A stretch of 64,000 nucleotides of DNA from Acutalibacteraceae bacterium. GTDB lineage: Bacteria; Bacillota; Clostridia; Oscillospirales; Acutalibacteraceae. Positions 42,051 to 57,634 of this stretch are shown here, one piece after another. The first letter of the stretch is position 1; every line of letters begins with the position of its first letter. Both the position numbers and the translations under genes were made by a program. The notes under the pieces were generated by a model. It saw nothing but the letters and a program-made list of their open reading frames with translations, did not search any database and was not told the DNA's origin. Location of the stretch: contig JAZNBS010000050.1 of assembly GCA_045587185.1 (NCBI GenBank), forward strand, positions 6,564 to 70,563. Direction: 5' to 3'.

Positions 42051-42102
42051 TATTTGATGGAGTATCCATTAAAATATATTCTATTTACAGGAGGTGCAGA
42101 TA

Positions 42103-42342
42103 ATGGTTAAGATCAGACTTTGCCGTATGGGTGCTAAGAAGGCTCCTTTTTATCGTGTAGTTGTTGCTGACTCCAGATATCCCAGAGACGGTCGCTTTAT
42201 CGAGTCCATCGGTTACTATAACCCTATGACCGATCCCGCTACCGTTCAGATCGATGCTGACGCAGCTAAGAAGTGGATTGCAAACGGTGCACAGCTTACC
42301 GATACCGTTAAGGATCTTCTCAAGAAGAACAATGTTCTTTAA
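42103..42342 (+). CDS. rpsP: 30S ribosomal protein S16
   Basis: [25 protein letters not shown]. Confidence 0.97.
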
Positions 42343-42363
42343 TCTTTAGCAGGAGAAATTATT

Positions 42364-42597
42364 ATGACTGAATTGCTTGTTACCATCGTTTCAGGGTTAG
42401 TTTCAGATCCCGAAAGTGTAACTGTTACCGTGGACGAGCCTAATGAAGAGGGTGTTGTTGTATACCATCTTCATGTTGCCGAAGGCGATATGGGTCGTGT
42501 TATCGGAAAGCAGGGAAGGATCGCAAAGGCTATACGTGTTGTAATGCGTGCCGCTGCGAACCGTAACAACGAAAAGATTGCCGTTGAGATTGATTGA
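42364..42597 (+). CDS. KH-domain RNA-binding protein (YlqC-like)
   Basis: GRVIGKQGRIAKAIR is a GxxG KH motif. Conserved position between rpsP and rimM. Confidence 0.85.
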   Translation: MTELLVTIVSGLVSDPESVTVTVDEPNEEGVVVYHLHVAEGDMGRVIGKQGRIAKAIRVVMRAAANRNNEKIAVEID

Positions 42598-42680
42598 TCT
42601 TAGCGGCCTCTTTGGTGAAATCTACCCCTCAAGTTTTTGAGGGGTATTCTGATATATATGATTTAATTAGGGGGGATTTT

Positions 42681-43193
42681 ATGCCTCAGAAATTTTTGCG
42701 GGCCGGAAAGGTTGTCGGAACACATGGGATACGCGGTGAAATGCGTGTTGAGGTGTGGTGTGACAGTCCTGAATTTCTTGCAAAGTTCAAAAAACTTTAT
42801 ATGGATAAAGACGGTAACGGTGAGTTTTGTGTAAAGTCACGTGCCCATGGTAATATTTGCCTTGTTAAGGCTGACGGAATTGATTCCATTGAATTGGCTG
42901 AAAAGTATCGCGGAAAGGTGCTTTATATTAACCGTGATGACTGCAAATTGCCTAAAGGCAGTTACTTTATTACCGATATTATTGGCTGTAATGCGTTTGA
43001 TTTTGAAACGGATGAGGAGTACGGTGTTGTCGTTGATGTATCGCAGACAGGCGCTAACGACGTATGGCACATAAAACGTAATGGCAATGAGTTTCTTATC
43101 CCCAATGTGCCTGAGTTTGTCAAAAAAGTTGATATTGATGGCAGCAAGGTTTACATAACACCTATAAAAGGAACGTTTGATGATGAAGATTGA
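42681..43193 (+). CDS. rimM: 16S rRNA processing protein RimM
   Basis: GKVVGTHGIRGEMRV and a PRC barrel C-terminus. GGGGGA RBS before ATG 42681. Confidence 0.9.
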   Translation: MPQKFLRAGKVVGTHGIRGEMRVEVWCDSPEFLAKFKKLYMDKDGNGEFCVKSRAHGNICLVKADGIDSIELAEKYRGKVLYINRDDCKLPKGSYFITDIIGCNAFDFETDEEYGVVVDVSQTGANDVWHIKRNGNEFLIPNVPEFVKKVDIDGSKVYITPIKGTFDDED

Positions 43194-43869
43194 TATTTTA
43201 ACGCTTTTTCCCGATATGTGTAATGCGGTACTGGAGGAAAGCATCATCGGGCGCGCAATAAAAGCAGGTCACGTTGAGGTGGAAACACACAACATACGTG
43301 ATTTTGCAGGTAATAAGCATAACCGTGTGGACGATGCACCATACGGCGGGGGTAAAGGTATGGTAATGCAGGCCGAACCTATCTATCAGTGTTTTAAAAG
43401 TTTGTATGCTGATGACGACATTAAACCCCACTTGATTTATATGTCGCCAAAAGGCAAGACTTTTACTCAAAGTGACGCTATCCGTCTTTCGGAATATGAT
43501 AGAATAGTCCTTTTGTGCGGTCATTATGAGGGTGTTGACCAGCGCGTTTTGGACGAAATTGTTGATGAGGAGATTTCGGCTGGGGATTATGTATTAACCG
43601 GCGGCGAACTTCCTGCACTCACTGTAACCGATGCGGTTTGCCGTATGATTCCGGGTGTCTTACCTGAGGAGATTTGTTTTCAGGAAGAAAGTCATTTTGA
43701 CGGTCTTTTGGAGTATCCTCAATACACCAGACCAGAGGTGTGGCACGGTGTTTCTGTACCCGAGGTGCTATTGTCAGGTCATCATCTAAATATCCAAAAA
43801 TGGCGCAAAGAAAAATCTGTTGAGATTACTCAAAAAGCACGTCCTGATATGATTAAAAACCGCAAATAA
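43177..43869 (+). CDS. trmD: tRNA (guanine37-N1)-methyltransferase TrmD (canonical copy)
   Basis: ILTLFPDM, DDAPYGGGKGMVM, LLCGHYEGVDQRV and GDYVLTGGELPA. Lies in the rpsP-rimM operon. Confidence 0.95.
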   Translation: MMMKIDILTLFPDMCNAVLEESIIGRAIKAGHVEVETHNIRDFAGNKHNRVDDAPYGGGKGMVMQAEPIYQCFKSLYADDDIKPHLIYMSPKGKTFTQSDAIRLSEYDRIVLLCGHYEGVDQRVLDEIVDEEISAGDYVLTGGELPALTVTDAVCRMIPGVLPEEICFQEESHFDGLLEYPQYTRPEVWHGVSVPEVLLSGHHLNIQKWRKEKSVEITQKARPDMIKNRK

Positions 43870-44133: not shown

Positions 44134-44397
44134 ATGTTCGTAAAAGATGTTGTTGTTCAGAATCAGGTTGGTCTCCACGCACGTCCTGCAACTTTCTTTA
44201 TCCAGAAGGCTAACGAATTCAAGTCATCCATCTGGGTTGAGAAGGAAGAGCGTCGTGTAAACGCAAAGAGCCTTCTCGGTGTTCTGTCTCTCGGTATCGT
44301 TGGCGGCACCTCTATCCGCATCATTGCTGACGGTAGTGATGAGCAACAGGCTGTTGAAGGTCTTGTAGCACTTGTTGAGTCCGGCTTTGCTGAGTAA
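44134..44397 (+). CDS. ptsH: Phosphocarrier protein HPr
   Basis: GLHARPA (His15) and NAKSLLGVLSLG (Ser46). Confidence 0.95.
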   Translation: MFVKDVVVQNQVGLHARPATFFIQKANEFKSSIWVEKEERRVNAKSLLGVLSLGIVGGTSIRIIADGSDEQQAVEGLVALVESGFAE

Positions 44398-44415: not shown

Positions 44416-44455
44416 AAAGCAGTAGGAAGTAAAAAACTTCTTACTGCTTTTTTTG
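44416..44455. terminator. Bidirectional terminator
   Basis: aaagcagtaggaagt-aaaaa-acttcttactgcttt followed by a T-run. Confidence 0.8.
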
Positions 44456-44462
44456 TTTGCTT

Positions 44463-45695
44463 TTAAATTTTCTTTTTAGATTTGTGTAAAATTGAATAGA
44501 TAATAATACCGATAAGAGGGAAGAGCATGCCGCAAAGCATCCCGAGTTTCATTCCCATCTGATCAGGTGTAAGTCCCAGCGTCTTGGAAAGGTTAAGAAG
44601 TGATGGCATAGTCAGTGCAGAATCGGTAACAACGCCGACCAACTGTGGTCCTATTGAGGCTCCAAGGTCCCCGCCTGCCGCCATAAGCGCGAATATAAAC
44701 ACACCGCCGTGGGGAAATTTGTCAGATGCTACTATCAGTGACCCCGGCCACATCATTGAGGTGCAGAAACCTGTAAAAGCACAGGCAAAAAGGCCAATAA
44801 CAGCCACGTCAGATACGGCAGCAACAAAGTAACAAAACGTTGCGCCGATGGCACCGAACAACAAGACCCGCGTAATCTTTTTGCCGATTTTGGAGTAAAG
44901 TGTACGTCCTAACCCAAGGGTAACAGCAAACATTGCTACACCCAAGATGTCACCCCAGAGTTTTGAGATGCCAAGTGACCTTTCAAGATAACTCGACGCC
45001 CACTGTGCCATTGTCAGTTCGCTTGCACCGCCAAGGAAAACTGCAATAAAACAAAGCCATAGCGATCCGTTTTTTAACTGGCTAAACGCGCCCAATGCCT
45101 TTTCAGACGTCTCCATTTTGGGCATTTCTGTGGTTGAAAACAGTATTGCGGAAATCAGGGGGATAACGCTTAGTCCGATAACTAACCATTGCCAGTAATC
45201 CCGTCCAAGAAGTTTTATGAACAGTGTAAAAACGATAACAAAGAAAACAACGCCCCAAGCATAAATTGAGTGCAGTTTGCTCATCTCACGGTCGGGGTCT
45301 TTTGAGGGCAGGGCGGCTATGGTTGGGCTTATTAACACCTCAGCAAGTCCTGATCCAAATGAAAATATGACGGTGCCGATTACAAGACCGGTATATTCAT
45401 TTCCGTGGAAAACCCAAGGTGCACATGCAAAAAGTATAATTCCTAAAACTGTAATACAAGGCATTAGTTTCACGGTCAGCGGTATATTGAATTTATGTGA
45501 AAAAAACGAGAATATAAGGTCTATTCCTAATTGAGTGATAAAATTTATAAGTACCAATGTACCTAAAAGTGAGTAAGAGATTCCGTATAACTCACGAAAT
45601 GTTAAAAATAAAAGCGGTGACATATTTGTTACCACAGACATAGCCACACTTGACATATAGCAGGCTGTTTTTAAACGTTTGATATTAAGTTCCAT
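44463..45695 (-). CDS. MFS transporter
   Basis: About 12 TM segments in a 6+6 arrangement. Confidence 0.75.
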   Translation of the reverse strand: MELNIKRLKTACYMSSVAMSVVTNMSPLLFLTFRELYGISYSLLGTLVLINFITQLGIDLIFSFFSHKFNIPLTVKLMPCITVLGIILFACAPWVFHGNEYTGLVIGTVIFSFGSGLAEVLISPTIAALPSKDPDREMSKLHSIYAWGVVFFVIVFTLFIKLLGRDYWQWLVIGLSVIPLISAILFSTTEMPKMETSEKALGAFSQLKNGSLWLCFIAVFLGGASELTMAQWASSYLERSLGISKLWGDILGVAMFAVTLGLGRTLYSKIGKKITRVLLFGAIGATFCYFVAAVSDVAVIGLFACAFTGFCTSMMWPGSLIVASDKFPHGGVFIFALMAAGGDLGASIGPQLVGVVTDSALTMPSLLNLSKTLGLTPDQMGMKLGMLCGMLFPLIGIIIYSILHKSKKKI

Positions 45696-45831
45696 TAAAA
45701 CATCTCCCAACCCCTAAATACTAACACAGTGCGGTTTATTATTCAACCCCGAAATCGTTTAATTTCGGTCACTTGACAAATATAAAACTTAAGTACATAA
45801 TTAATGTATAATACTATGGCTTGGTGACTTT

Positions 45832-46545
45832 ATGAAAATTTCTATTCTGACTATTACACCCGAATTTTTTTCATCTTTTCTAAACACTACCATTATCAAA
45901 CGCGGTATTGACAAAAAGGTTTGTGAAATTGAGATAGTTGATATCAAAAATTTTGCACACGGCAGTTTCAGACATATTGATGATTCGCCGTTTGGTGGCG
46001 GAAACGGTATGATTATGCGTTGTCAACCAATATATGATGCATTAAATTCTGTGTGTCTAAACAATTCACATAAAATTTTACTTTCGCCTAAAGGAAAGAC
46101 CTATAATCAGTCAAAGGCTCGCGAACTGTCAAAGCAAGAGCACATTGTTCTTATCTGCGGACATTATGAGGGTATTGATGCTCGCGTTGAGGAATGGGTT
46201 GACGAACAGGTATCTATTGGTGATTACGTATTGACGGGCGGAGAATTGGCCGCACAGGTCATAACCGATTCAGTAGTCCGTTTGCTCAAGGGTGTGTTAA
46301 GGGACGGGTCTACGAACGAAGAATCACACGAGAACGGACTTTTGGAATACCCGCAATACACTCAGCCGCGTGAGTTTCAAGGTCTAACGGTTCCCGATAT
46401 ACTGCTTTCGGGCCACAAGGCAAAGATTGATGATTGGCGTTTGACACAATCGTTAAATTTAACACGAAAACACCGTCCTGATATGTTTGAACGTTATGTT
46501 TTAAATGAAAAGGAGAAGAAATTATTGAAAACGGCAGATGAATAG
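45832..46545 (+). CDS. Second TrmD-family tRNA (guanine-N1)-methyltransferase paralogue
   Basis: ILTITPEFF, DDSPFGGGNGMIM, LICGHYEGIDARV, GDYVLTGGELAA and LLEYPQYTQP are all retained. By eye it is roughly half identical to the copy at 43177. Confidence 0.9.
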   Translation: MKISILTITPEFFSSFLNTTIIKRGIDKKVCEIEIVDIKNFAHGSFRHIDDSPFGGGNGMIMRCQPIYDALNSVCLNNSHKILLSPKGKTYNQSKARELSKQEHIVLICGHYEGIDARVEEWVDEQVSIGDYVLTGGELAAQVITDSVVRLLKGVLRDGSTNEESHENGLLEYPQYTQPREFQGLTVPDILLSGHKAKIDDWRLTQSLNLTRKHRPDMFERYVLNEKEKKLLKTADE

Positions 46546-46547
46546 CA

Positions 46548-46587
46548 AAAAAAGTTCCCGTAACCATTTGGCTACGGGAACTTTTAT
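46548..46587. terminator. Bidirectional terminator
   Basis: agttcccgta-loop-tacgggaact flanked by A- and T-runs. Confidence 0.8.
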
Positions 46588-46588
46588 T

Positions 46589-48505
46589 TTAATGCAGTTG
46601 TACTTCAGCCTTCGGCTCAGTATATACCAACTTCATTTCGGATGATTCAGATGCCTTCTTATTTACTGATTCAGGATTTTTGTACGTAGGTACTAATTCC
46701 ATCAGCATATTTCTCACATCATCATTAGAGCCTTCAATAACATCAGAGAGTTTTGAAAGCATTTGATCAATCTCCTCACGTGTATGAGGGTTGTCCATTT
46801 CGATGAAAATGAGATCGTTTTCGGTTTTTGTGAGGTCTTCGGATTTTATAAGAAGTTCCTCATACAGTTTTTCACCTGGTCTTAAGCCTGTTTCAATTAT
46901 GTCAATTTCCTCATATGGCTTGAATCCCGCTAATTTTATCATATTTTCAGCAAGTTCAAGGATTTTGACAGGTTTACCCATATCAAGCACAAACAACTCT
47001 CCGTTGGTTGCCATTGCTCCTGCCTGTAAAACTAATTGAGAGGCTTCAGGAATTGTCATAAAATATCGAATGATGCGTTTGTCGGTTATAGTGATAGGGC
47101 CGCCGTTTTGAATCTGATGCTTAAACAAGGGGATGACCGAGCCGTTTGAACCGAGAACATTTCCAAAACGTACGGCAACAAATTCAGTTATTTTACTGTC
47201 ATGACGGCTTTGGACAATCATTTCGCATATACGTTTGCTCGCGCCCATAACATTTGTGGGGTTGACCGCTTTGTCGGTAGAAATCATAATAAAACGTCTT
47301 ACGCCGTATTTTTCAGCACAGTTCACAGTGTTAAGTGTGCCGAATACATTGTTCTTTATTGCTTCACTGCAATTGTTTTCCATTAAGGGTACGTGCTTGT
47401 GTGCCGCAGCATGGAAAACAACATCGGGGCGATATTTGTCAAATACTTTCTCTAGCCTTGAGATATCTCTTACCGAACCAATTTCGGCATAAAATTCAAA
47501 TGAGTTACCGAAGGTGCGTAAAAGTTCTTGCTGAATTTCATATGCGTTGTTCTCATATATATCGAAAACAATAAGTTTTGACGGACCGGACTTGGCAATC
47601 TGACGGCATATTTCACTTCCTATGGAACCGCCGCCACCTGTTACAAGCACGGTCTTGTTTTTATAATATTTAAAGGTATCGGTATCGTTAATATCGTGGC
47701 AATCTCTAAATAAAAGATCCTCAATCTTAAATTCACGCAAACGGGGTTTGCCAGAAATATCATGGTTGTTTTCACCCATAGCAAAGTCGTATAATTTAAT
47801 TTTACAACCTGTTTTTGAGTAAAAATCGTATATCCTTTTGGCATCTGCAGAGGATAGACTGGGAAGTGCAATGAATATTTCCTTGATTAGTAATCTTTTT
47901 ATAGATTCAAAAACATCCTCATTTTCCTCAATAATTTTAATTCCGCTGATATAACCGCCGACACGTTCTTTCTTAATATCAACGAAGCAAATCGGACGGT
48001 ATTTTGAATTAGAGTTGTATAGAAGTTCTTCAACAAGCAAGGAACCGGTTTTACCCGCACCAACGATAGCAACATTTGTTTTACCGGTACCGCTGTTTCC
48101 GTACAGCATGCCGTTTGCAGAATATTGATAAACAAAACGTGACATAAGTGTTATGAGGGTGAAAAGGCAGACGTTTACAAGTGAATTCCACACACTGATA
48201 TAAATAGTTGGCATTATAAATCTTGAAACAAAAAAAGCAACGGAAGCACCGATAAAGTCTGAAACTATCACAAGAAGATAGGCTCTTGTGTTGGCATATC
48301 TCCAGACATTAGAATATATTTTAAAACCGAAACGCGAAGCGAAAATACAAAAACCGAACAAAATAAAATTCGATATGTAATCCTTGAAACCTAGGTTTAT
48401 GCTAATAACGGTTGAATATTGTGAAACTGTAAAAGAAGCAGAGAAAGCGATGATAAGAAAGAAAATATCAATAATAAAAATTACTATTCTTCGAATGCTT
48501 ATCAA
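46589..48505 (-). CDS. Membrane-bound nucleotide-sugar 4,6-dehydratase/epimerase (CapD/WbpM/PglF family)
   Basis: Four N-terminal TM segments, Rossmann motifs VGAGKTG and VTGGGGSIG, and the SDR motif AAAHKHVP. TTG start 7 nt after GGGAGG; the ORF is open to 48571. Confidence 0.85.
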   Translation of the reverse strand: MISIRRIVIFIIDIFFLIIAFSASFTVSQYSTVISINLGFKDYISNFILFGFCIFASRFGFKIYSNVWRYANTRAYLLVIVSDFIGASVAFFVSRFIMPTIYISVWNSLVNVCLFTLITLMSRFVYQYSANGMLYGNSGTGKTNVAIVGAGKTGSLLVEELLYNSNSKYRPICFVDIKKERVGGYISGIKIIEENEDVFESIKRLLIKEIFIALPSLSSADAKRIYDFYSKTGCKIKLYDFAMGENNHDISGKPRLREFKIEDLLFRDCHDINDTDTFKYYKNKTVLVTGGGGSIGSEICRQIAKSGPSKLIVFDIYENNAYEIQQELLRTFGNSFEFYAEIGSVRDISRLEKVFDKYRPDVVFHAAAHKHVPLMENNCSEAIKNNVFGTLNTVNCAEKYGVRRFIMISTDKAVNPTNVMGASKRICEMIVQSRHDSKITEFVAVRFGNVLGSNGSVIPLFKHQIQNGGPITITDKRIIRYFMTIPEASQLVLQAGAMATNGELFVLDMGKPVKILELAENMIKLAGFKPYEEIDIIETGLRPGEKLYEELLIKSEDLTKTENDLIFIEMDNPHTREEIDQMLSKLSDVIEGSNDDVRNMLMELVPTYKNPESVNKKASESSEMKLVYTEPKAEVQLH

Positions 48506-48654
48506 ACGTCTGCACCTCCCAACGATAATATATAAAACATTATACCAATTTAATTTGTATATGTCAAACAAAAATATTTTAAAATTGGTAGTAATTTATA
48601 GTAAATTTATAACCCTAACCGTTGTTTTGGGTTAGGGTTATAGCGGAGAAAATG

Positions 48655-49071
48655 TTACTTGTCAAAAGACGGGTTGATTTCGTAGAAATTCTTTTCGTTG
48701 AGTTTATCGGTAAGGTTGCGTAAGCCTTCACCAAAGCGTTGATAGTGAACAACTTCGCGTTGACGTAAGAACCTTATGACATCTCTGACGTCGGGGTCGT
48801 CTGCACAGTAGCGGAGAATATTGTCATAGGTTGTTCTTGCCTTTTGCTCGGCTGCCAATGATTCATGCAAATCGGTTATAGGATCTCCCTTTGATGCAAG
48901 TGCCATTGTACTGTATGGTACGCCTGAAGCCGCTTGGGGATAAATTCCGTTGGTGTGATCAACAAAATATGCGTCAAAACCTGACTTGTTAATGTCATCT
49001 TCCGAGAGGTTGCGGGTTAATTGATAAACGATTGTACCTACCATTTCAAGGTGAGCAAGTTCCTCAGTACC
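48655..49071 (-). pseudogene. cotJC: cotJC 3' portion (Mn-catalase-family spore coat protein), separated from its 5' portion by the inserted element
   Basis: The reading frame upstream of Met 49044 continues as GTEELAHLEM back to 49071. This matches the central E-x-x-H metal motif and C-terminal half of CotJC. Confidence 0.85.
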
Positions 49072-49128
49072 TATTGAAGAATAAAATTGTTTATGTTATA
49101 ATACCACCATCAAGGAGGTAAAAAAGTT

Positions 49129-49452
49129 ATGAGGAAAAACTATTTAATTGACTATTACCGCAACAATATGACACAGGAACAACTGGAAAATGCCCACACC
49201 TTACTTTATGATGATAACAGGTTATTATCTTATATCTGTTATTCATATAATTGCTATGAACTATTACATAGCAAGGGGCATTTATCATTGATAACCAATC
49301 CAGATGCTTTGTTTTCTACACCACAAGCAGAGCAACAATTCATTATGGAATTAAAAAACTACATAAGAGATGTTATTGGTATCAAGAGAGAGGATGTTCA
49401 AGATGGCAACACTAAAAGTAATAGAGCCGACCAAAACAACACTAAAAACTAA
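49129..49452 (+). CDS. Hypothetical 107-aa protein overlapping the recombinase start
   Basis: AAGGAGG RBS, 9 nt before the ATG. No motif recognised. Confidence 0.45.
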   Translation: MRKNYLIDYYRNNMTQEQLENAHTLLYDDNRLLSYICYSYNCYELLHSKGHLSLITNPDALFSTPQAEQQFIMELKNYIRDVIGIKREDVQDGNTKSNRADQNNTKN

Positions 49453-51190
49453 TGATAATAAACCGCACAGAGTTTGTGCGTACTGTCGTGTATCTACTGA
49501 TGAAACCGACCAAAGAAATTCTTTAATAGCACAAAAACAGTTTTTTCAAAGATATTTTGATTTACACCCAAACTGGACTAATGTAGGCATATATGCCGAT
49601 GAAGGACTTTCCGGCACATCCCTTGAAAAAAGAGATGCTTTCAATCGTATGTTGTTTGAGGCCAGACGTGGAAACATTGACATTATTCTCACGAAAGAGG
49701 TTTCCAGATTTTCAAGAAATGTTCACGATATAATGAGCATTGTTGTAGAACTGCAAAACAAAGGTGTTTATGTGTGGTTTTTGTCGGATGAAATTAACAC
49801 CGAGAGCATCAAAGACCGTGAGCGACTAACCCAGATAGCCACAAATGCCGAGCAAGAGAGTTTAAGAACATCAAACCGTGTTAGGTGGGGACACCAACAA
49901 CAAATGCAACTGGGTGTTGTTTTCGGCAGAAAAGAAATGTACGGTTATAATATCGTAAAGGATGATAACGGCATCCAACACTTTGAAATTATACCAGAAG
50001 AAGCCGAGGTCATCAAGAACATTTTTGAATGGTTCGCATCTGGTGAGGGTACACACCGAATTGCACGCAGATTAGAACAACAAGGAATTGAAACCAAGCG
50101 ATATAAAAACGGATGGAGTACAACCGTTATACTCCGCATTTTGCGAAATGAGAAATATGTGGGCGATTTAGCACAAGGCAAAACCTACACACCCAACCCA
50201 CTCTCTCATAAGAAAAAATACAATACAGGCGAATCCACCCGCTATTACATTACAGACCACCACCCAGAAAGTGCAATCATTGACCGTGAACTCTGGAACA
50301 AGGTACAAGCGATACTGGAAGAAAAAGCACCCAGCGAAGAAATAAAAGCGAAACACTCCAACCGCTACTGGACGAGCGGAAAGGTGTTTTGTGGGTTATG
50401 CGGTCAAAGGTATGTCAGTTACGTAAAAAAGCAAAAGAACACACCTTATCGTGCTTGGGTATGCTTTGAGAACCACCAGAGAGGTCGCTACAAGCAGATA
50501 ACACTTGATACAGGCGAAACTGCTACTGTCGGTTGTAATGCTTTGAGAGTGAATGACAGAGTGCTTAAAACCGCCGTTCACGATATTGTTACCGAGTACA
50601 TCATACCGCATAAAGAAAATATCCTTGCAGAGATGCGAAAAGAGATAGAACAACTATCAAAACCGCAAGACCACACAAAGAAAATCGCATCTATACAAAA
50701 GGAAATAGAACAAGCACAACAAAAGATAAACAAACTCACACAGGGTTGGATGGATGGCATCGTTCCAGAAAATGCCTATACAATGAATATCGGACCTGCT
50801 AATGCACGATATGAGCAATTACAGGCAGAACTCCAAAAACTGCAAATACAGAACAATTCAGTAAGTGCAGAGGTGCAAATCTATGAGGAATACATAGAGC
50901 AACTGCAAAGCATCCTATCACTCACCGATGATGAGCTTAACGATGCTTTTTATGAGAGAGTTACAAAACAGATTTATGTTTATCCATCAAACCTTTTAGA
51001 GTTTCGCCTGTCATTTATTCCTATGCCTATTTATTTACAATATAAGGCATCTGGTAGAGCAGATTTTTACAAGGTGGAACTTACCATCCTAACCGCCGAG
51101 CAATTCGCTGAAATGCTCAAAAATGCCCCTAAAAACGATTTTACGGAACAAACAGATACAGACACCACTGGCAACACAAACAACTCTTAA
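49403..51190 (+). CDS. Large serine recombinase (resolvase domain, recombinase domain, zinc ribbon and coiled coil)
   Basis: AYCRVSTDETDQ contains the catalytic Ser. Also ILTKEVSRFSRN, a CGLCG...C zinc ribbon and a long coiled coil (KEIEQAQQKINKL). Confidence 0.95.
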   Translation: MATLKVIEPTKTTLKTNDNKPHRVCAYCRVSTDETDQRNSLIAQKQFFQRYFDLHPNWTNVGIYADEGLSGTSLEKRDAFNRMLFEARRGNIDIILTKEVSRFSRNVHDIMSIVVELQNKGVYVWFLSDEINTESIKDRERLTQIATNAEQESLRTSNRVRWGHQQQMQLGVVFGRKEMYGYNIVKDDNGIQHFEIIPEEAEVIKNIFEWFASGEGTHRIARRLEQQGIETKRYKNGWSTTVILRILRNEKYVGDLAQGKTYTPNPLSHKKKYNTGESTRYYITDHHPESAIIDRELWNKVQAILEEKAPSEEIKAKHSNRYWTSGKVFCGLCGQRYVSYVKKQKNTPYRAWVCFENHQRGRYKQITLDTGETATVGCNALRVNDRVLKTAVHDIVTEYIIPHKENILAEMRKEIEQLSKPQDHTKKIASIQKEIEQAQQKINKLTQGWMDGIVPENAYTMNIGPANARYEQLQAELQKLQIQNNSVSAEVQIYEEYIEQLQSILSLTDDELNDAFYERVTKQIYVYPSNLLEFRLSFIPMPIYLQYKASGRADFYKVELTILTAEQFAEMLKNAPKNDFTEQTDTDTTGNTNNS

Positions 51191-57035: not shown

Positions 57036-57256
57036 TATTTTCTCGCCCCCGTAAATTTGCCGTAAAACGGCTTGTCAAGGTCAGGGAAAAGTGTGCCGCG
57101 TTCCAGAGCGTCATTCTCGGAATAGACTTCTCCCCATTTTTGCATTGGCACATAAGCCATGGTTAAAGGCAGGTTTTTCAGTTGTGTGTCACTGAATTTC
57201 ATCTGTTTGTCATGTCGCTCAGGCATAACAAAGCCTTTAAATTTCAAATCTGACAT
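57035..57256 (-). CDS. cotJA: Spore coat-associated protein CotJA
   Basis: LAMAYVPMQKW...Y....AL..GT.FP.L..PF pattern. Overlaps the cotJB start. Confidence 0.85.
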   Translation of the reverse strand: MSDLKFKGFVMPERHDKQMKFSDTQLKNLPLTMAYVPMQKWGEVYSENDALERGTLFPDLDKPFYGKFTGARK

Positions 57257-57422
57257 TGCAAACTCCTTTTATATTAAATTATTTGACAAGCGTCAAATAA
57301 GGGGGGAATACCCCCTCATACCATCCTATGACAGGCCCAAAAACACGTTAAATAAATTTTTCAAAAATTTTGAAAATAATGCTTGCATTTTGGCAGTAAG
57401 TGTGGTAATATATTTGCGTTGC

Positions 57423-57499
57423 CCGGGTGTAGCCCAGTTTGGTAGAGCGCTTGAATGGGGTTCAAGAGGCCGCAGGTTCGACTCCTGTCACTCGGACCA
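57423..57499 (+). tRNA. tRNA-Pro (anticodon GGG)
   Basis: Hand-folded cloverleaf. Acceptor stem CCGGGTG/CACTCGG (one G-U pair), anticodon stem CTTGA/TCAAG, loop AT-GGG-GT, T-loop TTCGACT and an encoded CCA. There is one C-A mismatch in the D stem. Confidence 0.85.
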
Positions 57500-57536
57500 A
57501 AACCGAATTCATCCTTTTGGATGGGTTCGGTTTTTA
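57500..57536 (+). terminator. Rho-independent terminator after the tRNA
   Basis: aaccgaattcatcc-tttt-ggatgggttcggtt followed by TTT. Confidence 0.7.
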
Positions 57537-57634
57537 CTTTTTGATATTATCTGAACTGCGGCCGATTGAAATTTTTGTTGTTGTCATTGGTAAAAAAGTA
57601 GAGTTCACAGTAAATTGTCTGTGAACTCTTTTGT

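Follow-up and report, generated by a model that had tools for sequence, protein, structure and literature searches.

A second, stand-alone trmD gene in an Acutalibacteraceae genome is a xenologue from a family of orphan TrmDs that appears not to have been described

The tRNA methyltransferase TrmD, which forms N1-methylguanosine at position 37 (m1G37), is the textbook single-copy essential enzyme of bacteria; by its action the reading frame is maintained at CCN and CUN codons, and antibiotics are being directed at it. Horizontally acquired second copies are familiar among the aminoacyl-tRNA synthetases, where IleRS2/MupA-type enzymes and second MetRS or TrpRS copies confer antibiotic resistance. 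For TrmD itself, two proteins in one organism have been recorded for Syntrophobacter fumaroxidans MPOB, the sole exception among 555 proteomes (Zhang et al., 2017, PMC5217690), and a full-text search of the literature on trmD paralogues, second copies and transfer returned nothing beyond that remark. Here we describe a second trmD, designated trmD2 (45832-46545, + strand), in a stretch of 64,000 nucleotides (the window) of contig JAZNBS010000050.1 from an Acutalibacteraceae bacterium (assembly GCA_045587185.1), which also carries the canonical copy, trmD1 (43177-43869, + strand). Based on equivalog hidden Markov models, phylogeny, conserved residues and predicted fold, we assign its 237-residue product as a stand-alone TrmD xenologue of an orphan TrmD family, a clade of TrmDs that left the rpsP-rimM-trmD operon. 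The explanation we favor, at a probability of about 0.7, is that trmD2 was acquired horizontally, that its product has the m1G37 activity of the canonical TrmD, and that its independent expression is uncoupled from ribosome synthesis. S. fumaroxidans likewise has two TrmDs, but it is a deltaproteobacterium and its case was mentioned without analysis (PMC5217690).

The trmD2 open reading frame (ORF) has no internal stop, as the original prediction held, and the four motifs quoted there (IDDSPFGGGNGMIM, CGHYEGID, GDYVLTGGELAA and LEYPQYT) are all found in the protein. The estimate that the two copies are about half identical agrees with BLASTP, by which TrmD1 and TrmD2 share 49% identity over 225 residues (E = 4e-78). 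Both proteins match Pfam PF01746, with a score of 190.8 bits for TrmD2. Against the two NCBIfam TrmD equivalog models, NF000648 (cut-off 220 bits) and TIGR00088 (cut-off 195 bits), TrmD2 scored 287.2 and 278.4 bits and TrmD1 scored 313 and 293 bits, respectively. The whole genome, a small one from a gut or rumen member of the Clostridia (an assembly of 1.55 Mb in 55 contigs, 97.7% complete), contains exactly two trmD genes. TrmD2 is 46% identical to the Staphylococcus aureus TrmD (3KY7) over its full length, and it has the same length, two-domain architecture, S-adenosylmethionine (AdoMet)-knot motifs and Asp50/Arg154/Asp-Glu169 residues as the canonical TrmDs of S. aureus, Haemophilus influenzae (1UAK/4YVI) and Escherichia coli (1P9P). 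Unlike those, it is encoded by a second copy which lies outside the rpsP-rimM-trmD operon and has its own promoter, and it is distinguished by G44-S45-F46-R47-x-I49, S52, R63 and Q130 (E. coli numbering) and by the lack of conservation of His201.

The relationship of the two copies was assessed first by their closest matches. While the best 120 matches of TrmD1 are all 76-92% identical to it, the few named ones being labelled Clostridia or Ruminococcaceae, the best matches of TrmD2 outside the genus are 58-68% identical, versus 49% for its own TrmD1, and some are labelled Erysipelotrichaceae or Oscillospiraceae. In a maximum likelihood tree of 146 TrmDs (IQ-TREE, LG+C20, quick search, with support from the Shimodaira-Hasegawa-like approximate likelihood ratio test, SH-aLRT, only), TrmD1 grouped with the operon TrmDs of Acutalibacteraceae and other Oscillospirales, and TrmD2 was placed inside an Erysipelotrichaceae-type clade (SH-aLRT 96) and, nested in that, in a clade of 49 rows (SH-aLRT 98). 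An approximately unbiased (AU) test rejected a joint clade of the TrmD1s and TrmD2s of the genus (log-likelihood difference 159, p = 1.4e-4). In addition, TrmD2 has the derived residues F16, C64, L71, S79, L83, Y91, E167 and F219 in common with Erysipelotrichaceae-type TrmDs, and it keeps a C-terminal L-x-x-x-E-K-x-L-L tail, as in S. aureus TrmD, that is absent from all TrmD1s of the genus.

Based on the tree, the AU test, the derived residues and the C-terminal tail, we reject a local duplication and regard trmD2 as a xenologue that was acquired horizontally, its source being an Erysipelotrichaceae-type lineage. A tandem duplication is the reading that the position of the gene would at first suggest, since trmD2 is on the same strand as trmD1 and only about 2 kb from it, with ptsH (+) and a major facilitator superfamily (MFS) transporter gene (-) between them; the distance is just 1.3 kb in two other species genomes of the genus (G003 and G015). 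For that reading to hold, however, the duplicate would have to have diverged quickly and the Erysipelotrichaceae position would have to be an artefact of the tree, and relatives of TrmD2 up to 68% identical occur outside the genus in unrelated contexts. With these and the preceding results against it we give a tandem origin next to no credence. The term paralogue, which was used for trmD2 in the original prediction, is therefore not appropriate, as the gene was not copied in place; the same prediction had listed horizontal acquisition among its options, and it is this option that the phylogeny of both copies and the AU test bear out.

Among 24 species genomes from this genus, nine had an orthologue of trmD2 (69-84% identity). 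There were none in the 37 other genera that were first sampled from the family and order, and in 400 genomes of the order each had one trmD, consistent with the expectation that TrmD is normally single-copy, with the exception of three low-quality assemblies with two matches; nothing in these genomes was more than 52% identical to TrmD2. A tree of five genus proteins (Ffh, S16, KH, RimM and TrmD1; 1016 columns) placed all of the trmD2 carriers in one clade (support 100/99), on which the pattern of presence is accounted for by two changes, one gain and one loss (in G019 and G021), and the branching of TrmD2 inside the genus agrees with this tree. These data indicate that trmD2 was gained once, in the common ancestor of a single subclade and at a site about 2 kb from the resident trmD, and has been inherited vertically since then. 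Ancestrally, the genes were arranged in this genus as rimM-trmD1-ptsH-(0 to 5 genes)-MFS(-)-trmD2(+), and the order of the operon that ends in trmD1 is the same in all members. Synteny of trmD2 is limited to this one subclade, and the gene has no known separate function, which sets it apart from a common, syntenic gene with an established role of its own.

The gene trmD2 is under strong purifying selection. In the usable between-species pairs its ratio of non-synonymous to synonymous substitution (dN/dS) was 0.04-0.10, compared with ~0.05 for trmD1; synonymous sites between these species are near or beyond saturation, with dN of 0.03-0.28. Together with the presence of all catalytic residues, this is not the picture of a decaying pseudogene. 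The GC content of trmD2 and its GC content at third codon positions (GC3, 0.37 to 0.56) track those of each host genome, as they do for trmD1, and therefore point to a long residence. We also considered whether TrmD1 has decayed since the gain of trmD2, and rejected this: in carriers the ratios of TrmD1 to Ffh distances rise no more than those of RimM to Ffh, so there is no specific relaxation of TrmD1.

The roles of the key residues of TrmD have been determined for the G36-reading Asp50, Arg154, the stacking Leu160, Ser165 and the catalytic Asp/Glu169 (PMC6795141 and PMC9508554); the catalytic carboxylate is Asp169 in E. coli and Glu in Firmicutes. Their counterparts in TrmD2 (D50, R150, L156, S160 and E164 in its own numbering) are invariant across the orphan family. 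In E. coli numbering the residues kept in TrmD2 are D50, D51, G55-57, P89, G113, Y115, E116, S132, G134, G140-141, R154, L160, S165, E169, E177, S198 and G199. The AdoMet-binding loops (P89/G91, G113-x-Y115-E116-G117, S132-x-G134 and G140-G141-E142) are also present in TrmD2 and are invariant in 49/49 orphan sequences.

The AlphaFold2 model of TrmD2 has a mean predicted local distance difference test score (pLDDT) of 89.6 and a predicted template modelling score (pTM) of 0.85, and the prediction is weak only in the family-specific loop, at residues 41-60. In Foldseek searches this model aligned with many TrmD crystal structures at template modelling (TM) scores of 0.85-0.89 over ~240 columns, and the protein is predicted to consist of a SPOUT trefoil-knot N-terminal domain and a helical C-terminal domain. 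The best structural match was the TrmD domain of the double-knotted TrmD-Tm1570 fusion of Calditerrivibrio nitroreducens (PDB 8B1N/8BYH; bioRxiv 10.1101/2023.03.13.532328), a non-standard TrmD fused to a second SPOUT domain; TrmD2, in contrast, is a plain TrmD, and some orphan members are fused to a GIY-YIG domain instead. From the residue conservation and the fold we infer for TrmD2 the m1G37 mechanism of canonical TrmD, a Mg2+-dependent homodimer: TrmD2 as a homodimer would bind AdoMet in the trefoil knot, flip out G37 of tRNAs with G36-G37, and then methylate N1 of G37. TrmD2 is most likely an active m1G37 isozyme, one that is expressed apart from the ribosomal-protein operon.

TrmD2 departs from canonical TrmDs in three respects. 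The loop before Asp50 is altered (K45S, H46F, V49I), and Glu130 is replaced by Gln. Among TrmDs in general, the residues at positions 46 and 130 change together (H-E in 63, F-Q in 44 and Y-L in 10 sequences); a text search of the literature found nothing on a structural role for these two positions. In the C-terminal tRNA-contact motif (Ser198-Gly199-His/Asp/Asn200-His201), S193, G194 and H195 of TrmD2 are kept and the His201 position is occupied by Lys196. This position is Q in 15, H in 13 and K in 11 members of the orphan family, versus His in 71/76 and 19/19 canonical sequences.

Such a co-varying pair of positions might be expected if TrmD2 were an idle or regulatory subunit that formed heterodimers with TrmD1, or bound tRNA or AdoMet without turnover, particularly as TrmD is an obligate dimer whose active sites are shared and used one at a time (PMC9508554). 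We regard this as highly improbable, however, because every catalytic and cofactor residue is conserved in ~50 family members, which would be unexpected for an idle protein, and because the 46/130 switch (H-E, Y-L or F-Q, depending on the family) could equally serve to block heterodimers.

The same differences, in the tRNA-facing elements, could instead reflect specialization or neofunctionalization, in which TrmD2 would transfer the methyl group of AdoMet to another subset of tRNAs or another RNA, and substrates would be split with TrmD1. Consistent with this, K45-H46 before Asp50 is replaced by S45-F46, His201 is variable, the non-synonymous rate of trmD2 is ~1.7 times that of trmD1, and some orphan members carry a YazA-type GIY-YIG fusion. 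Nevertheless, D50, R154, L160, S165 and E169, which read G36/G37, are all kept, and TrmD2 is still above the equivalog cut-offs. The tRNAs of the genome also give this reading little encouragement. Those with G36-G37 are the usual set of Leu (GAG/UAG), Pro (CGG/GGG) and His (GUG), whereas tRNA-Arg(CCG) carries A37, and the one odd G37 tRNA, the C36-G37 tRNA-Val(GAC) (contig C48:15431-15506, - strand), occurs throughout the sampled order in genomes with and without trmD2. Its sole difference between carriers and non-carriers is A26C (C26 in 6/6 carriers with a match, A26 in all nine non-carriers), a clade marker, and we rejected a special tRNA substrate on these grounds. We therefore consider a change of substrate to be unlikely. 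One of the predicted TrmD substrates, tRNA-Pro(GGG), is encoded in the window itself (57423-57499), inside a spurious 131-amino acid ORF (57159-57554).

The stand-alone arrangement of trmD2 extends to its transcription signals. A sigma-A-type promoter (45773-45801, + strand; TTGACA-17 nt-CATAAT, 11/12 matches to the consensus) precedes the gene, and an alignment of the regions upstream of nine orthologues shows CTTGACAA-N17-CATAAT in eight. This promoter is expected to be a working one because its elements are kept in these orthologues while the spacer varies, the remaining spacer being poorly conserved. A Shine-Dalgarno-like GGTGA (45823-45827, + strand) was read from the sequence 4 nt before the ATG of trmD2, and a purine-rich GG(T/A)G is found at the same place in most orthologues. 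The terminator that had been proposed for the gene is borne out by a two-way intrinsic hairpin (46550-46585) between trmD2 and the CapD-like gene, with a 16-bp stem containing seven G-C pairs and T-runs after the stem on both strands. These features indicate that trmD2 is a separate transcription unit with its own conserved promoter and terminator, as opposed to the last gene of a ribosomal-protein operon.

The last gene of such an operon is what trmD1 is: the canonical, vertically inherited copy (230 amino acids) closes a ylxM-ffh-rpsP-KH-rimM-trmD series, with rpsP, the KH-domain gene and rimM at 42094-43193 (+ strand; assigned from ORFs and conserved synteny), and it overlaps the end of rimM. 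By contrast, trmD2 is predicted to be transcribed from its own sigma-A-type promoter and not as the end of a growth-rate-controlled operon, and TrmD2 would supply m1G37 uncoupled from ribosome synthesis, e.g., when cells grow slowly, sporulate or germinate; its binding of tRNA or of ligands may also be altered. The listed ORF for trmD1 begins at a TTG and reads MMMKIDIL (43177-43185); translation probably starts at one of the two ATG codons that follow, both of which still overlap the end of rimM (43193).

TrmD2 is not confined to this genus in its broader affinities. All TrmDs that bear the motif G-S-F-R-x-I-D-D-S-P fall in a single clade (SH-aLRT 97). Its signature consists of G44, S45, F46, R47, I49 and S52, from which the motif results, together with R63 and Q130, where canonical TrmDs have Glu130; the TrmDs of the sister group are rimM-linked. 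None of the ten members checked outside the genus had linkage to rimM, and their contexts differed: they lie downstream of a CmpB-type gene and a DEAD helicase, of ThiF (overlapping it by 4 nt), of a cation-efflux gene, of a NUDIX gene, of an HD-domain gene close to sigH, rlmB and cysS, and of glycosyltransferases in a metagenome-assembled genome (MAG) labelled Blautia. In two Erysipelotrichaceae genomes (L143:7487-9436 and L147:6406-8124) a PGA_cap (CapA-like) capsule-synthesis gene lies 3-4 nt upstream; the two loci belong to a syntenic block that also includes azlC and a PRD/Mga-type regulator gene. Five orphan clusters (P0053, P0055, P0060, P0071 and P0094; L148:5149-6090) are fusions in which a complete TrmD carries a YazA/UPF0213-type GIY-YIG domain (~85 amino acids) at its C terminus, making 313-327 amino acids in all, and stand alone beside feoAB and a PNPOx-like gene. 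Six other members of the family also scored above the TrmD equivalog cut-offs.

A motif scan of metagenome contigs found 114 stretches; 80 were fetched, and 77 of these encode TrmD, representing ~60 lineages at 80% identity. Linkage to rimM was judged on the 44 loci with at least 1.5 kb upstream, and 43 had no rimM, rpsP or KH gene; the exception was a genus-type locus with trmD1 upstream. Members of the orphan clade occur in hosts labelled Erysipelotrichaceae, Lachnospiraceae, Oscillospiraceae and Acutalibacteraceae. The orphan TrmDs are a single clade that left the rpsP-rimM-trmD operon, and apparently a family that has not been described. In every whole genome that could be checked the orphan TrmD is found alongside a resident canonical trmD, including three others in which both were present: MAG RUG10685, the "Blautia" MAG RGIG5147 and the isolate assembly GCA_000701725.1. 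Around this isolate a second copy is uncommon, with one, perhaps two, of 100 sampled species having two full trmD genes. The single-copy, rimM-linked setting is a habit of the TrmD family rather than a requirement of the enzyme class.

No conserved partner gene emerged when the neighbours at 87 loci from ~60 lineages were clustered, as no neighbour family occurred in more than five lineages; PGA_cap, upstream of the orphan trmD, reached that number. A phage or plasmid vector was rejected too: in PLSDB and INPHARED no tblastn match exceeded 48% identity, most matches being chromosomal trmD in mislabelled records, and no close relative of TrmD2 was found among IMG/VR contigs.

These searches bear on the suggestion, also made in the original prediction, that trmD2 is a resistance-type spare copy. 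The orphan family would on this account spread horizontally because it resists a natural compound or metabolite by which the resident TrmD is inhibited, for instance a nucleotide or a competitor of AdoMet. There is a resemblance, by analogy only, to IleRS2/MupA-type second copies, as both are divergent, have a patchy distribution over distant hosts, occur beside the native copy and are subject to purifying selection, and a divergent, horizontally acquired copy beside the native gene is indeed what we found. The gene concerned is a second copy for an essential enzyme and has moved between families and classes, and the conserved changes of its product (positions 44-52, 63 and 130) are near the active-site region common to both subunits. 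Unlike the synthetases, trmD2 has no known inhibitor, and we know of no natural TrmD inhibitor from gut bacteria, which counts against this account. Furthermore, an association with biosynthetic clusters, mobile elements or recurrent partner genes was not found in the ~60 lineages or in the plasmid, phage and IMG/VR searches.

A further point concerns Tyr86, which in E. coli TrmD decides the discrimination between AdoMet and 3',5'-cyclic AMP (cAMP) (PMC5217690). This position is Tyr in TrmD1 and Leu in TrmD2, which could be taken as a sign of altered ligand sensitivity; however, Leu is the state reported to bind cAMP and would make TrmD2 more sensitive, not less. As Leu86 is also common to canonical Erysipelotrichaceae TrmDs, and as a search for class III adenylate cyclases (PF00211), although not for other cyclase classes, found none in the genome, we attach little weight to the cAMP idea. 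Overall, we judge an inhibitor-insensitive spare copy to be rather unlikely. A bolder version, to which we would give somewhat less chance still, is that orphan TrmD is a circulating "immunity isozyme" with which m1G37 formation continues when the resident TrmD is blocked by some natural inhibitor or metabolite of gut and rumen communities, the 46/130 switch altering ligand sensitivity and preventing mixed dimers.

We return to the reading that we prefer, an acquired and active m1G37 isozyme with expression of its own. Some observations weigh against it or parts of it. The variable His201 (Lys here) and the remodelled Asp50 loop may mean that the substrate range or affinity of TrmD2 differs. 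Promoter architecture is the sole ground on which a benefit of uncoupled expression is proposed. Branches placing the immediate sister of the orphan clade, and with it the exact donor, have SH-aLRT values of only 87-93, and the chance that an incoming gene would land ~2-4 kb from the resident trmD is roughly 0.3-0.4%. Finally, some of the cases of co-residence are MAGs, in which binning errors are possible, although the window and the isolate assembly are unaffected.

The genes around trmD2 are those named in the original prediction. The MFS transporter gene (44463-45710, - strand; PF07690) is divergent from trmD2, and a CapD-like polysaccharide biosynthesis gene (Polysacc_synt_2; 46589-48571, - strand; PF02719, 408 bits) is convergent with it. 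The MFS gene is beside trmD2 in seven of the nine carriers, is missing in G003 and G015, and is present without trmD2 in G014; it is an ancestral neighbour of trmD2 and not a functional partner. MFS and CapD-like genes were rejected as constant partners, since they vary even within the genus. The CapD-like gene lies between trmD2 and cotJC in this genome only and looks like a later insertion, because in G009, G003 and G004 an intact cotJC of 199 amino acids directly follows trmD2. In the window (48655-51190) cotJC, of the Mn-catalase family, is reduced to its C-terminal 129 amino acids and adjoins a large serine recombinase gene (49370-51190).

Downstream of trmD1, ptsH (HPr; 44134-44397, + strand; PF00381; terminator at 44416-44450) stands in place of rplS, which is on another contig (C45:20029-20367). 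We considered whether the absence of rplS from this position is connected with trmD2 and rejected this, as ptsH follows trmD in many Acutalibacteraceae and Oscillospiraceae whether trmD2 is present or not; this operon break is therefore older than the gain of trmD2 and unrelated to it.

Our findings show that a distinct family of extra TrmDs, with a single origin, exists in Firmicutes of the gut and rumen and moves between families and even classes, and that the extra trmD has been kept long-term beside the native gene even in genomes of 1.2-2.5 Mb. It may be kept for a backup role, for separate regulation or for insensitivity to an inhibitor; more tentatively, its value could lie in a supply of m1G37 that is independent of the ribosomal-protein operon. 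The G-S-F-R-x-I-D-D-S-P motif with Gln130 provides a sequence marker by which annotation pipelines could separate the extra from the housekeeping copy. The family also raises the question of whether alternative TrmDs could blunt TrmD-directed drugs. Were these enzymes immunity isozymes, commensal Firmicutes would already harbour a stock of alternative TrmDs, a matter of importance for TrmD-targeted antibiotics, and an undiscovered natural product directed at TrmD would be indicated by the family. The TrmD1/TrmD2 pair bears as well on how TrmD specificity or ligand sensitivity may vary, and two TrmDs in one cell would offer a handle on why the supply of m1G37 is tied to ribosome synthesis.

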